NCBI RefSeq assembly: GCF_046105845.1
Contig: NZ_CP151004.1
DNA length: 64,000 nt
Source of the DNA: Escherichia coli
GTDB taxonomy: Bacteria; Pseudomonadota; Gammaproteobacteria; Enterobacterales; Enterobacteriaceae
Strand: one strand, 5' to 3'
Below are positions 39,711-46,855 of this stretch, one piece after another; the first letter of the stretch is position 1, and every line of letters begins with the position of its first letter. The position numbers and the translations under genes were made by a program. Under the pieces are notes generated by a model. It saw nothing but the letters and a program-made list of their open reading frames with translations. It was not told the DNA's origin and made no database searches.

Positions 39711-40421
39711 TCAGAGCAGATTTTGCTCCTTCTTTGCACTCAACCCGCCGTAATCATTTATCGTCCGCCAGGAGACATGACACGGTGCTATTGCCTGACA
39801 CCAGCTTGTCTGACGCTGGCTTTTAGGTGGCACAACTCCCGCATTACTTAACGCTTTACCATTTACGCTCACCTGAATCAGGTTAATGTAGTAAGGCGTT
39901 GGGTTAGTGAGTTGTACACCCTGCGAATTCCGTGTCCAGCGTAATTGTTGATAAGCTTCTAGCGGGTCGCCCGGCAAACCTTCGGGTCGCCAGAACAGTT
40001 TAAATACCGAGCGCATCGCCACTTTTACGCTCTGATTTTCAACTTTGCCGGATGGTACGCTGGCAATGCTTAACTCAAATAGCGTTTCGCGATCCACAGG
40101 CAAAATGCCGCTTTCCGTTCTCAGCAAGCGCAACGTGCCTGTAGTACCGGGCTTCAGGAGAATAAGTGGCGGAGCGGCCAGTAATGGTGCTGACCCTGTC
40201 GACGCTTCCCCCCCGGCCCAACGCGTTGGGCGATTGATTTTACTGTTAATAAGCCAGGATTCCTGACTGGTATTAGTCAGTGAAATAGATATCGATTCTC
40301 TGTCTGCCGGGAAGATAAATCGCGTTCCGCCAACCACCACTCCTGCCTGCAATTTCCCCGCCACCAGCAGCGATAAAACGGCAAAAATCGCGAGCGTCAA
40401 TCTGTTCCACGTATTAGTCAT
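39711..40421 (-). CDS. ycbF: Fimbrial periplasmic chaperone-like protein YcbF
   Basis: ORF trimmed to MTNTWNRLTLAIFAVLSLL (236 aa); PapD-like fold; last gene of elf operon. Confidence 0.85.
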   Translation of the reverse strand: MTNTWNRLTLAIFAVLSLLVAGKLQAGVVVGGTRFIFPADRESISISLTNTSQESWLINSKINRPTRWAGGEASTGSAPLLAAPPLILLKPGTTGTLRLLRTESGILPVDRETLFELSIASVPSGKVENQSVKVAMRSVFKLFWRPEGLPGDPLEAYQQLRWTRNSQGVQLTNPTPYYINLIQVSVNGKALSNAGVVPPKSQRQTSWCQAIAPCHVSWRTINDYGGLSAKKEQNLL

Positions 40422-40929
40422 AATGAAGTACAAATGTCGCGCTGGCATTCACTTTACCCGACTGCACATCGCTATTAACAGGTCGCAATTGCGCATAAAA
40501 AGTTAATGGCACCTTACTGCTATGTAGGCTGTAGTCTTTACTCGCCTGGTTAAGCGGAATCAATATTTTCGCATCATCCAGAATCGCAATTGCCAGCCCA
40601 CTGGCTGCATCCGTACCACTTTCAATGGACAGCATTTCGCTCTGCGTTCCGTCGGGTGTTCCTGAAAAGGTAACGTCAACCGTGCTGACATCTGTTCCGC
40701 AATCCTGCAAATTAATGATGAAAGATTTCTCCGGGCCATAGTTCCCATGAGAAAAACGTGTCAGCGAGACATCGCCTAACTGCACATTGATTTGCTTGCT
40801 ATCCTGTGCCAGCACGCATGTATTACGGCGAAACGATCCGCTAATGTTGACCGTGCCATCATGGGCAAATAGCTCACAACCCCCCGTTAATCCCAGTAAG
40901 AACAGAATCCAGATTATCCGTTTCAACAT
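40414..40929 (-). CDS. ycbV: Fimbrial-like protein YcbV
   Basis: ORF trimmed to signal peptide MLKRIIWILFLLGLTGG (171 aa); fimbrial subunit family. Confidence 0.85.
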   Translation of the reverse strand: MLKRIIWILFLLGLTGGCELFAHDGTVNISGSFRRNTCVLAQDSKQINVQLGDVSLTRFSHGNYGPEKSFIINLQDCGTDVSTVDVTFSGTPDGTQSEMLSIESGTDAASGLAIAILDDAKILIPLNQASKDYSLHSSKVPLTFYAQLRPVNSDVQSGKVNASATFVLHYD

Positions 40930-40936
40930 CACTCCT

Positions 40937-41479
40937 TCACTGGTAAACCAGATCAAAATAGAGAACCGCCGTCGCATTACCGCCCGTTGCTCCCGCCTTT
41001 GTGGACTTATAACGAAGTTGATATTTGAGTGTGTTATCCCCGGCTTTTAAGGGCGTAAGAGGCTGGACCTGATTGAGCGGGATTTCTTGCTGACTTTGCG
41101 CATCAAGAATTTGCACGGCAATCCCCGTTGCCATACCACCGCTTCCGCCTGTGTCAGTTAGTTTGAGCAGTGTCGGCGCAAGGGTGTCAGCCTCGCCGCT
41201 AAAAAGGACGTCCGCGCCAGTAATACCAGCGGCACAACCGGTGATATCGATATTCAAATCAGCAGCAGTGCTTACGGTATTCGCGGCCTGAAAATCACTG
41301 ATATTAAAATCACCAATATGAATATTTTGTAATGCACTTTTGGTGGCGACATCACAGCCCTGATCGACCACATTCCCATAAATATGCATACTAACTTGTT
41401 CAGGCCCAGCCATCCCGACATGGGTGTTAAGAAAGCTAAAGAACAAGATAACGTACTGAAATATTGTTTTTTTCTTCAT
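40937..41479 (-). CDS. ycbU: Fimbrial-like protein YcbU
   Basis: 180-aa ORF with signal peptide; fimbrial subunit-like. Confidence 0.88.
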   Translation of the reverse strand: MKKKTIFQYVILFFSFLNTHVGMAGPEQVSMHIYGNVVDQGCDVATKSALQNIHIGDFNISDFQAANTVSTAADLNIDITGCAAGITGADVLFSGEADTLAPTLLKLTDTGGSGGMATGIAVQILDAQSQQEIPLNQVQPLTPLKAGDNTLKYQLRYKSTKAGATGGNATAVLYFDLVYQ

Positions 41480-41490
41480 ACGTTCACGCG

Positions 41491-42561
41491 TTAATCAAAA
41501 TTTATTCTCACCGTTGCCGTGGCTTCAAATCGCCCGGTTTCTGGTGGTACGCCTGTCGTGCTGACCGGATAGACATTCATTCGCGCGATACTGTCTGCAT
41601 CATCAGGAATAGAGAGCGGTAGAATTCCACCAGCCGGGGAAATTATGTTGTTCTGGCTGTCAGTCACCACAATGCCCACGCCAGGACGTGAAGTCTTAAT
41701 CGCCTGGGGATAGCTGGGGTCTGAGGTTGCCGTCAGACTCAGGTTGACGTTAACTAACCCAGCGTTTCCAGTGTTACACCTGACTGGAATTGAGAGTTCT
41801 GCCGTTCTGGCCCCAAGAGGCTTATGCCCTACAACACGAAAGTTAGCCGCAAATACGTCGCCCAGATCGACCTCGATTGTTTCTCCGGCATTGACGGAAC
41901 ATGAGCCAAGTGAATTGATAGTACCAGACAGGTAATACACTAAAACCGGTGTACCTGTAGTCGTGCAGGAATCACCTGCGGGTATGTTGTAGCATTCAAA
42001 TAATCGCGCCAGCGCCATAGGAGGAATGACGACCGAACCAACGAACGGCTGCAATATTTTCAGGGAAAAGCTACCGCTATTACCGCTAGCCCCCTGGCCG
42101 CCTAAACGTTGACCGCCGGGGTCACAAATATGCCACCGGGTATCTGCCCCTGTGCCCACGTTTTCAAAAGGAACCGCAGTAGGAGAACTGCCTTTAACCT
42201 GCAATAAAACTTTGGCGGCAAGATAGTCATTAATTTTGTACCAGTTGTCGCCTAAATAGACTAACGGTGAATCCGCGGCGAATGCCCATCGGCCACTTCT
42301 GACATTGTCTTTATCGCAATCACAGGAAACATAATAATCATTCGATTCGTTCCACTGATAAAATTTGTCTTTAACTACCCCTGCAGTATTTTCTTCTTCC
42401 TCCAGGGTTTTAACGCCAAAATTGACGCCAATATAGGGATTCCCCTGAGTGGTATGACACTGCCCGCTATAAGCAGCGGTTTGAGCGCACCATAGCATTA
42501 AGACGGCGGCAAAAAATAGTCGTAGTAATGACACGCATTTTTCTCCATAGATTATCTGCAT
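41491..42561 (-). CDS. elfG: Fimbrial tip adhesin-like protein ElfG (YcbT)
   Basis: 356-aa ORF with signal peptide; position after usher. Confidence 0.88.
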
Positions 42562-45152: not shown

Positions 45153-45176
45153 CTCGCTCTCTTAACTGAAGACGGC

Positions 45177-45878
45177 TTACGATTTACAGTTGAGTTGCGG
45201 CGTTTCCGCCCCGTAGTCATTGATGGTTCGGTACGTTACGCTACTGTTTTGAGCACCCTTTGGCAGAGGGAATTGGTATTTATCAAAGGGGGAAATCATT
45301 TGATTTTTAACTACTTTTCCACCTATTTTCAGGTCTGTCAGGGTAATGAAATAAGGTGTTGGGTTACTGACCGTAACCATGTCAGCTGACGAAGTGCAAC
45401 GCAGTTTCGCCGGAGCCTCGGCTAAGGGATATGCTAAACCTTTTGGTCGCCAAAAAAGTTTGATGACGCTTTGTGTGGCAATCTTCAGGGTATTGCCTTC
45501 TTCCCGCTTCGTTGTTGAAGGGACTGCCCGTACGCTGGTGAAGAAAAGAGTTTCTCTGTCTTTCGCCAACGGCGCACCAATATACATAATGCGTAACAGA
45601 TTCTCATTTGCCGGATTCAGCACAAATAGCGGTGGTGTAATAATAAAGTCCGCTGATTTTTTATTATCTGGTGTCATCACCCATGACTGAATAAGATAAG
45701 GAACATCCGGACTGGTGTTACGTACACCCAGTGAAATTTGCTCTTCACCTTCCGAATAAACAAGACGTGTTGCTGCAAGTCCAACCCCGCCTTTACCTGC
45801 CGCCCATGTGGACGAACAGCTGAGTAATATTGCCGTTAAACTTACGGTCACAATTCCCTTTGTTATGCAAGTTTTCAT
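45177..45878 (-). CDS. elfD: Fimbrial periplasmic chaperone ElfD (YcbR)
   Basis: 233-aa ORF, PapD-like chaperone. Confidence 0.93.
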   Translation of the reverse strand: MKTCITKGIVTVSLTAILLSCSSTWAAGKGGVGLAATRLVYSEGEEQISLGVRNTSPDVPYLIQSWVMTPDNKKSADFIITPPLFVLNPANENLLRIMYIGAPLAKDRETLFFTSVRAVPSTTKREEGNTLKIATQSVIKLFWRPKGLAYPLAEAPAKLRCTSSADMVTVSNPTPYFITLTDLKIGGKVVKNQMISPFDKYQFPLPKGAQNSSVTYRTINDYGAETPQLNCKS

Positions 45879-45960
45879 AAATAGTCACTCTTAAAAAATA
45901 TGGATATCCCCTCCAGAACACTGGAGGGGGACTAATTAATAAAACAATTAATGTGTTCTA

Positions 45961-46500
45961 TTAATAATAGTTAATATGGAAGTTTGTTACCGCATTAACA
46001 TTACCTGAAGTGGCTTTACCCGTAGCGATATAATCAACTTTAAAGGTCAACGTCTGATCTCCATTCTGCAACAAGATGTTCCCGGTTTCTGTGTCTGGCG
46101 TAATGGTCGTTGTGCCATCATTCATGTACATTTGCAGGGCCACGTTTGTAGCAGCATCAGTAGAGGCCTGATTAGCAAACGCTGTAATCTGCGTAGTATC
46201 CGCAGTGCCATTAAAGGTGAACGTTGCATTTTTTGTTACGGTAATATCACAATCTTTTAATTCAATTGGCACATCAGTTTGCACTCCAGAAACCTGGCCA
46301 TTACTTTGCAACTTCGTAGCACTAACATCTGGCAAAGTCACCACGGAATCTTTCGTCACAGCTACCAGCGAACAAGCTGGAGCAATGACTTTACCATTAA
46401 ATGTTACTTTGCCATCCGTGATAGCATTATCATCAGCCGCCATAGCACTGGACGTTGCACATACCACAGTTATAAACGCCGTCAATACACTTTTTTTCAT
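45961..46500 (-). CDS. elfA: Major fimbrial subunit ElfA (YcbQ)
   Basis: ORF trimmed to MKKSVLTAFITVVCATSSAMA (179 aa); AT-rich upstream region. Confidence 0.9.
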   Translation of the reverse strand: MKKSVLTAFITVVCATSSAMAADDNAITDGKVTFNGKVIAPACSLVAVTKDSVVTLPDVSATKLQSNGQVSGVQTDVPIELKDCDITVTKNATFTFNGTADTTQITAFANQASTDAATNVALQMYMNDGTTTITPDTETGNILLQNGDQTLTFKVDYIATGKATSGNVNAVTNFHINYY

Positions 46501-46855
46501 CGTTATCATCCTGATTTTTTCGTAAATATGATAATGCCTTTAAATGACATTGGACTTAATAATAACAACAATTGTCCGCCATTTAAATCAAGCATCCTTA
46601 ATCCAATAAGTGACAAATCTTTAATTTATAGATTTCATGAATATTTTCTTATTACCTGAATGAGTAATTCATTGATTCAACATCGACTGAATATCCAATA
46701 AATAAATACACGTGATACATATCCCTCAATCCTTAGTTCATTTTTAGAAAAAGATACACAAAATTTATATTTGGCATTTTCTTGTCTCTCCGACAGACTG
46801 ACCGAATTGTTATCAATGTTAACAAAACAAGAACAATTGGTTATAAGGAGAGAGT

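Follow-up and report, generated by a model that had tools for sequence, protein, structure and literature searches.

Organization and identity of the locus

The window, the whole 64,000-nucleotide stretch of Escherichia coli DNA analyzed here, carries seven minus-strand open reading frames between positions 39711 and 46500 (Table 1). Their lengths, their order, and their pyrD and ssuE neighbors all equal those of K-12 elfADCG-ycbUVF, and no internal stop or frameshift was found in any of the seven when the frames were re-read across the window, in agreement with the original prediction of an intact minus-strand elf/ycb operon. The junctions measure, in order from elfA, 82, 24, -10, 11, 7, and -35 bp and are thus short or overlapping, as had been claimed. 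The last overlap hinges on the start of ycbF; an internal ATG at 40421 would give a 6-bp gap instead.

The window genes align base for base with the RefSeq annotation of strain 2_0, whose locus coordinates are K-12-like, at an offset of 38099 and with all lengths equal, and three RefSeq-annotated E. coli strains show base-for-base collinearity with the window. Nucleotide identity to K-12 ranges from 93.8 to 99.3% per gene, and proteins identical to ElfA (WP_409023397.1), ElfG, and ElfC are already deposited in NCBI. An Rfam scan of the whole window matched only the pyrD leader, which starts 43 bp downstream of ycbF, and a tRNA, leaving the operon and its upstream spacer without a match. A simple minus-strand scan found no canonical intrinsic terminator 3′ of ycbF.

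Table 1. Features of the elf locus, with positions counted from the first letter of the window
Feature	Coordinates	Strand	Description
presence/absence segment	39701..46787		7087 bp, operon plus 287 bp of AT-rich tract; missing in B2 strain E2348/69
ycbF	39711..40448	-	putative second PapD-like chaperone, 245 aa annotated; Pfam PapD_N and PapD_C
ycbV	40414..40929	-	putative minor fimbrial subunit, 171 aa; Pfam Fimbrial, E = 3.2e-20
ycbU	40937..41479	-	putative minor fimbrial subunit, 180 aa; Pfam Fimbrial, E = 1.2e-14
elfG	41491..42561	-	putative two-domain tip adhesin, 356 aa; Pfam Fimbrial at residues 211-356 only
elfC	42552..45152	-	outer-membrane usher, 866 aa; Pfam PapC_N, Usher, PapC_C
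elfD	45177..45878	-	PapD-like periplasmic chaperone, 233 aa; Pfam PapD_N, E = 4.7e-36, and PapD_C, E = 2.9e-15
GC-rich hairpin	45908..45929	-	9-bp stem, CCCCTCCAG-TGTT-CTGGAGGGG, within the 82-bp elfA-elfD spacer
elfA	45961..46500	-	major fimbrial subunit, 179 aa; Pfam Fimbrial, E = 9.7e-17
divergent elfA-ssuE control region	46501..46855		355 bp, 29.0% G+C
proposed SlyA site	46503..46514	-	TCAGGATGATAA; overlaps the elfA Shine-Dalgarno sequence
ssuE-directed promoter-like site	46544-46572	toward ssuE	ATGACA-17-AACAAT, deep in the AT-rich tract
sigma-70 promoter-like site	46559..46587	-	TTTAAA-17-TATTAT, from a scan; a TG is placed one base before TATTAT

Gene products

The Pfam domains of the operon's products make up a complete usher, a pair of two-domain chaperones, and four subunits with a Fimbrial domain. 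The usher, ElfC, scores 1745 bits against NCBIfam NF011740 (cut-off 995) and matches FimD structures over its full length (E = 1.7e-260). In a ranking by similarity score, FimD (870 bits) and LpfC lie well above PapC (230 bits) as matches of ElfC; Ycb has been classed as gamma-1 (PMC7098969). The chaperone ElfD matches the structures of SfaE and FimC (E about 1e-51 to 1e-50) and carries the cleft motifs ATRLVY and KLFWRP, and the corresponding motifs in YcbF are GTRFIF and KLFWRP. Like ElfC, YcbF passes its equivalog cut-off (NF008483, 528 bits; cut-off 357), with an alignment that starts at residue 10. This is where ATG 40421 lies, and the product is possibly one of 236 aa begun at that codon.

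Pilin traits are shared by the four subunits, namely a Fimbrial domain (in ElfA, YcbU, YcbV, and the C-terminal half of ElfG), cysteine pairs, and the C termini ...YY, ...YQ, ...YD, and ...FD. ElfA has a signal peptide ending in AMA, a Cys43-Cys84 pair, and the C terminus ...HINYY, where the signal peptides of this and the other subunits were read by eye; it equals its K-12 counterpart in length and differs by 10 substitutions (94.4% amino acid identity). Its start is placed at ATG 46500 rather than ATG 46509 because an AGGA Shine-Dalgarno sequence lies 8 nt before the former. YcbU contains a Cys42-Cys82 pair and ends in ...DLVYQ, and its best NCBIfam matches are BcfE and FimF; those of YcbV, whose RefSeq start is backed by a GGAG Shine-Dalgarno sequence ahead of ATG 40929, are FimF and BcfF, and each of these matches falls under its cut-off. 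For YcbU and YcbV, and for YcbF as second chaperone, the roles are putative assignments based on homology.

ElfG consists of an N-terminal domain, presumed to bind the receptor, that is without a Pfam match, and a C-terminal pilin domain. The match to the LpfD adhesin structure (PDB 5AFO; E = 4.5e-27) extends over residues 33-356 and takes in both domains, suggesting that ElfG is a putative two-domain, LpfD-like tip adhesin.

We consider it very probable that this locus is elfADCG-ycbUVF (Ycb/ELF), a chaperone-usher fimbrial operon of E. coli and likely a gamma-1 system, present without interruption in its pyrD-ssuE position. It is expected to behave as in K-12, where the operon works once it is transcribed but is silent in its default state. 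The identification follows from the seven intact frames of K-12-like length with their neighbors, the domain content, the NCBIfam equivalogs, the structure matches, and the motifs; no sequence evidence contradicting it was found.

The elfA-ssuE control region

The region upstream of elfA had been described as AT-rich, and it is close to the extreme for the window: no more than 0.06% of its 355-bp stretches have so little G+C, the average of the 64 kb is 51.1%, and the minimum for this length, 27.9%, itself overlaps the elfA-ssuE spacer. The spacer has the same length as in K-12, to which it is 92.1% identical (28 of 355 positions differ), and is 97.2% identical to that of strain E09. Twelve of the changes relative to K-12 fall in a 37-bp block at 46709-46745, two lie immediately upstream of the proposed SlyA site, an A-tract next to that site is altered, and a G/A change is found in the promoter spacer. 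E09 and XJ6.1, both ordinary strains of E. coli, carry this haplotype too.

The promoter-like site directed at elfA lies about 59 nt upstream of the ATG; its hexamers are invariant across five strains, and the same hexamers and spacing have been given for K-12 elfA (Shimada et al. 2014, PMC3946193). The 12-mer listed as the proposed SlyA site is identical to the one proposed in K-12, 8 bp upstream of elfA (PMC5797941). The high-affinity H-NS 10-mer TCGATAAATT, with up to two mismatches allowed, occurs 77 times in the window, where 59 occurrences would be expected. This enrichment is not significant, and only 2 of the matches fall in the spacer; the motif therefore adds nothing beyond the AT-richness.

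The spacer is shared with ssuE, and the AT-rich tract could in principle serve mainly to regulate the divergent ssuEADCB operon and not elfA. The ssuE-directed site deep in the tract is consistent with this, as is the report that ssuEADCB responds to both H-NS and SlyA in K-12 (PMC5797941). The B2 strain E2348/69, however, which is without elf, retains only the sequences corresponding to 39601-39700 and 46788-46855, separated by 69 unrelated bases, and thus keeps just the 68 bp adjoining ssuE; the other 287 AT-rich bases are absent along with the operon. Since this strain is without both, most of the tract goes together with the elf genes, and a role directed mainly at ssuE appears unlikely.

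A hairpin between elfA and elfD

The minus-strand RNA of 45870-45975, which spans the elfA-elfD spacer, folds at -30.6 kcal/mol (z = -4.8), a value equalled by none of 200 shuffles. The GC-rich hairpin emerged only on this folding, the simple terminator scan of the minus strand having flagged nothing after elfA. A U-run begins 9 nt past the hairpin, and the stem is kept in four of five strains; the O157 copy has a single change in it. Judged from its sequence, the hairpin may act as a partial terminator or as an mRNA-stabilizing element favoring the major-subunit transcript.

Expression of the operon

The operon in K-12 appears in three H-NS data sets and has been called cryptic, and SlyA binds the 355 bp between ssuE and elfA by EMSA (PMC5797941), so that the H-NS link and K-12 crypticity invoked by the original prediction agree with the literature. 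Placed under a constitutive promoter, the K-12 copy yields functional fimbriae (Korea et al. 2010, as quoted in PMC5797941 and PMC7098969). Because of this result, and because the K-12-like copy is fully intact, the crypticity in K-12 is regulatory, not mutational, in cause and reflects H-NS repression with counter-silencing by SlyA. The same silent default is expected in the window copy, because it retains an AT-rich spacer of unchanged length together with the promoter-like and proposed SlyA sites. The window would then hold an H-NS-silenced, SlyA-counter-silenced promoter, for which the correlates are read here from the sequence and the experiments come from K-12.

The original prediction had gone on to suggest that an intact copy in a non-K-12 background may be an expressed adhesin. 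For this to hold, the regulatory region or the regulators would have to differ from those of K-12, and the divergence of the spacer, with its block at 46709-46745 and further changes beside the SlyA site and within the promoter spacer, could be read in this way; production of ELF fimbriae and laminin binding have moreover been reported for O157:H7 (Samadder 2009, as quoted in PMC11509540 and PMC7098969). Against it, the K-12-like copy is intact as well, so that intactness does not discriminate an expressed from a silent operon and is no predictor of expression; the spacer agrees with that of K-12 in its AT-richness, its length, both promoter hexamers, and the SlyA site; and ordinary strains carry the same haplotype. 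Expression as an active adhesin is thus quite improbable. The names, the intactness, the AT-rich upstream region, and the H-NS link of the prediction stand, but the step from intactness to expression does not follow.

A narrower proposal, that the lineage's regulatory haplotype (the 37-bp block, the G/A change in the promoter spacer, and the A-tract change by the SlyA site) weakens H-NS silencing or alters SlyA control, is in our judgment very doubtful. Were it true, Elf fimbriae built from the variant ElfA would be expressed constitutively or differently in this background.

Distribution and selection

Among 5426 complete E. coli genomes, 3997 carry the locus; it has been lost in about a quarter and is interrupted by insertion sequences in some. 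Its absence from B2 has been reported (PMC3559732). The presence/absence segment has a G+C content of 46.7%, and its ends show no mobile-element signature in the form of direct repeats longer than 6 bp. In the one pathogenic copy examined, that of O157:H7, 1-bp indels are found, and RefSeq marks ycbF and elfC as frameshifted.

Divergence is mosaic between the genes. The notion that the operon is unusually divergent (best identity 98.2%) was rejected, as the best identity for the flanking ssu-pepN-pncB region is likewise no higher than 98.5%; the whole genome is without a very close relative among complete genomes.

The dN/dS ratio lies between 0.05 and 0.38 in six of the seven genes, with 0.05-0.16 for elfC, elfG, elfD, and elfA and 0.29-0.38 for ycbF, and reaches 0.88 against K-12 in ycbU, a value from only four differences and too few to judge. 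That the operon is a decaying remnant, reading as intact but under relaxed selection and with its function gone, is extremely unlikely: the relatively frequent nonsynonymous changes in ycbF and ycbU and the losses, interruptions, and O157 indels seen elsewhere would fit such decay, but all seven genes are free of stops and frameshifts, the four elf genes have low ratios, and all family motifs are retained.

Proposed transcription and assembly

On the reading of a functional operon that is silent by default, transcription would start in the AT-rich spacer, probably at the promoter-like site upstream of elfA and with a predicted first base close to 46552, by analogy with K-12. By the same analogy, H-NS would silence it under laboratory conditions, and SlyA bound to the same spacer could relieve the silencing. 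The hairpin after elfA probably lifts the major-subunit message relative to the remainder. Family knowledge predicts that Sec exports ElfA, ElfG, YcbU, and YcbV to the periplasm, where ElfD and YcbF, as PapD-like chaperones, would cap these subunits through donor-strand complementation. They would then pass to the usher ElfC, which would begin with the adhesin ElfG at the tip, followed by the minor subunits YcbU and YcbV, and would then polymerize ElfA into the rod by donor-strand exchange. Ycb fimbriae have been described as rigid gamma-1 fimbriae involved in MDCK adhesion and biofilm formation (PMC7098969), and published work credits Ycb/ELF with binding laminin or heparin, with adhesion to epithelial cells, and with promoting biofilms (PMC7098969, PMC4914927, PMC11509540).

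Comparison with known fimbrial systems

The operon is an ordinary and previously described one, the structure, regulation, and adhesive properties of which are already published, and the main value of the result is the correct annotation of a standard, functional-looking fimbrial operon common to about three-quarters of E. coli genomes. The window copy shares with K-12 elfADCG-ycbUVF its seven genes, their order, lengths, and junctions, the pyrD-ssuE position, the 355-bp spacer, and the promoter-like and SlyA sites, and differs only allelically, in the gene, ElfA, and spacer identities given above and in the divergent 37-bp block.

The arrangement is reminiscent of bcfABCDEFG of Salmonella enterica, which encodes the bovine colonization factor fimbriae and likewise runs from a major subunit through chaperone, usher, adhesin, and a pair of minor subunits to a second chaperone. 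In NCBIfam, ElfA, ElfD, and YcbU score best against BcfA, BcfB, and BcfE, respectively, BcfD is a close second for ElfG after LpfD, and BcfF is a close second for YcbV after FimF. Because every Bcf score lies far under its equivalog cut-off (e.g., 114 bits for BcfA against 247), the Bcf proteins are homologues and not equivalents. The Salmonella bcf operon also lies elsewhere on the chromosome.

Elf resembles type 1 fimbriae (fimAICDFGH) and long polar fimbriae (lpf) in its chaperone-usher machinery, probably of the gamma-1 type in Elf as well, whereas the adhesin and receptor specificity differ. In contrast to type 1 fimbriae, no fimB/fimE-type invertible switch is encoded beside the Elf operon, and, unlike both systems, Elf carries a second chaperone gene at the 3′ end of its operon.

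Gene content and integrity of the elf/ycb locus

In terms of gene content, the six-frame ORF listing contains seven consecutive unbroken reading frames at 39711-46509 on the minus strand, between pyrD and ssuE. Reference regions were fetched from the complete, annotated genomes of E. coli strains 2_0, E09 and O157:H7 BB24-1; strain 2_0, whose locus coordinates are similar to those of K-12, served as the K-12-like reference. The window is base-for-base collinear with the three annotated genomes at an offset of 38099, and RefSeq starts were adopted for the genes. All seven are identical in length to their K-12 counterparts, re-translation of the window copy found no internal stops in any of them, and the junctions from elfA to ycbF measure 82, 24, -10, 11, 7 and -35 bp. 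The NCBIfam YcbF profile begins at ycbF residue 10, the ATG at 40421, and a start there would leave a 6-bp gap to ycbV in place of the -35 overlap.

Identification as the elf/ycb operon is secure. The original prediction of seven intact minus-strand genes with short or overlapping junctions is borne out, in coordinates and description, by the reading frames, the K-12 lengths and the junctions, and the check that it proposed, for a frameshift or premature stop in any operon gene, was run and revealed neither. The locus is an already known, ordinary feature. The sole O157:H7 copy examined, that of BB24-1 (locus L003), carries 1-bp homopolymer indels that align to window 39976 (ycbF), 41466 (5' end of ycbU) and 44659 (elfC); its ycbF and elfC are annotated as frameshifted in RefSeq.

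Features of the elf/ycb locus in window coordinates
Feature	Position	Strand	Basis
elfA	45961-46500	-	RefSeq start
elfD	45177-45878	-	RefSeq start
elfC	42552-45152	-	RefSeq start
elfG	41491-42561	-	RefSeq start
ycbU	40937-41479	-	RefSeq start
ycbV	40414-40929	-	RefSeq start
ycbF	39711-40448	-	RefSeq start
Promoter-like TTTAAA-17-TATTAT	46587-46559	-	Scan; exact match to published elfA promoter
SlyA 12-mer TCAGGATGATAA	46514-46503	-	Same as site proposed in K-12
9-bp GC hairpin	45929-45908	-	Within 82-bp elfA-elfD spacer
PyrD leader RF02373	39668-39595	-	Rfam, 97.9 bits

Predicted products and selection

The operon is predicted to encode a complete gamma-1-type chaperone-usher set. Pfam assigns PapC_N, Usher and PapC_C to ElfC, PapD_N and PapD_C to each of ElfD and YcbF, and a Fimbrial domain to ElfA, YcbU, YcbV and ElfG, in the last of which it is confined to the C-terminal 146 residues. 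ElfC and YcbF exceed their NCBIfam equivalog cut-offs (1745 vs 995 bits and 528 vs 357 bits), whereas the best NCBIfam matches of the remaining five proteins are Salmonella Bcf, Lpf or Fim proteins, all below cut-off. Among known structures, FimD is a full-length match for ElfC (E=1.7e-260), with PapC far weaker; SfaE and FimC match ElfD (E about 1e-51), and the two-domain adhesin LpfD (PDB 5AFO) aligns with ElfG residues 33-356 (E=4.5e-27). Direct reading of the proteins reveals N-termini that resemble signal peptides, ATRLVY/GTRFIF and KLFWRP as chaperone cleft motifs, a single cysteine pair in each pilin domain, and pilin C-terminal strands that end Y-Y, Y-Q, Y-D and F-D. In pairwise comparison with K-12 and E09, elfC, elfG, elfD and elfA have dN/dS values of 0.05-0.16, and ycbV and ycbF values of 0.13-0.38; ycbU has too few changes to be informative. 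Such ratios fit genes whose function is maintained.

Distribution and mosaic divergence

At least 80% of the locus was found by megablast in 3997 of 5426 complete E. coli genomes, with IS elements interrupting some of the matched copies. In five of the genomes listed, the match is confined to short flanks on the pyrD and ssuE sides. One of these, the B2 strain E2348/69, has only 236 bp between pyrD and ssuE (L004, its copy of the locus, 1502-1737); it shares only 39601-39700 and 46788-46855 with the window and carries 69 unrelated bases in place of 39701-46787. The latter is a clean 7087-bp presence/absence segment comprising the elf operon and 287 bp of AT-rich upstream tract, at whose boundaries neither direct repeats of more than 6 bp nor mobile-element signatures were found. 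Its lack in E2348/69 agrees with the reported presence of Ycb in phylogroups A, B1, D and E and not in B2 (Wurpel et al. 2013, PMC3559732).

The operon reaches at most 98.2% identity to any complete genome. Since the neighbouring ssu-pepN-pncB region likewise gets no higher than 98.5%, this ceiling is a property of the lineage, not of the operon. Identical copies of ElfA, ElfG and ElfC are already on record at NCBI as E. coli proteins, encoded on 4-7 contigs. Across 40937-47431, dS against E09 is 0.22 for elfA, 0.25 for ssuE and 0.11 for ycbU, versus 0.03-0.06 for ycbF, elfC and ssuA; against K-12, ycbU is nearly identical (0.008) and elfC stands at 0.27. These gene-to-gene contrasts suggest recombination breakpoints inside the locus.

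Among complete genomes, E09 has the operon copy closest to this one. Its collinearity with the window starts at 2463, and it has cspH, cspG, gnsA and yccM beside appA, unlike window 1-2462, where a 726-aa ORF (154-2334, plus strand) resembles Etk, a tyrosine kinase encoded in the gfc/etp/etk capsule cluster. The tRNA gene that Rfam places at 12656-12740 (plus strand) corresponds to a tRNA-Ser that the E09 annotation has between hyaA and yccA.

Internal hairpin and 3' end

The 106-nt stretch around the elfA-elfD hairpin folds at z=-4.8. The hairpin is conserved across strains and was missed by the terminator scan because its U-run begins 9 nt past the stem; judging from other fimbrial operons, its role may be to attenuate transcription or to stabilise elfA mRNA. 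The PyrD leader starts 43 bp downstream of the ycbF stop, and since a simple scan up to this leader found no terminator-like site after ycbF, transcription of the fimbrial operon could conceivably run on into pyrD.

Control region and comparison with K-12

The predicted AT-rich region upstream of elfA is confirmed at its coordinates: the G+C content of the elfA-ssuE spacer (46501-46855, 355 bp) is 29.0%, compared with 51.1% across the window; just 0.06% of 355-bp windows reach so low a value, and the window-wide minimum overlaps the spacer. The second most AT-rich stretch, 56811-57436 (minimum 30.7% G+C), corresponds to the intergenic region between asnS and ompF, upstream of the latter. Because E2348/69 keeps only 68 bp next to ssuE, 287 bp of the AT-rich tract are absent along with elf and not retained with ssuE. 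Identity of the spacer to K-12 is 92.1% and to E09 97.2%; within it, a block at 46709-46745 occurs as two haplotypes that differ at 12 of 37 bp, and the window's is the one found in E09 and XJ6.1.

The promoter-like site has a TG one base ahead of its second hexamer, and both hexamers are unchanged across five strains. The whole region holds 9 promoter-like sites versus 12.5 in shuffles, so that the evidence lies not in the scan alone but in agreement with the elfA promoter listed by Shimada et al. 2014 (PMC3946193).

The sequence gives no support to the suggestion that the operon, being intact in a non-K-12 background, may be expressed as an adhesin; the K-12-like reference copy is equally intact. 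Korea et al. 2010, as cited in PMC5797941 and PMC7098969, found the K-12 copy functional under a constitutive promoter, which makes its crypticity regulatory. In K-12, elfADCG-ycbUVF appears in three H-NS data sets, is termed cryptic and rises 2.7-fold under SlyA over-production, and the 355-bp ssuE-elfA spacer binds SlyA as an EMSA probe, with a proposed site 8 bp upstream of elfA (PMC5797941). That 12-mer is also present here and, as far as sequence can tell, all features tied to K-12 regulation are retained in the window.
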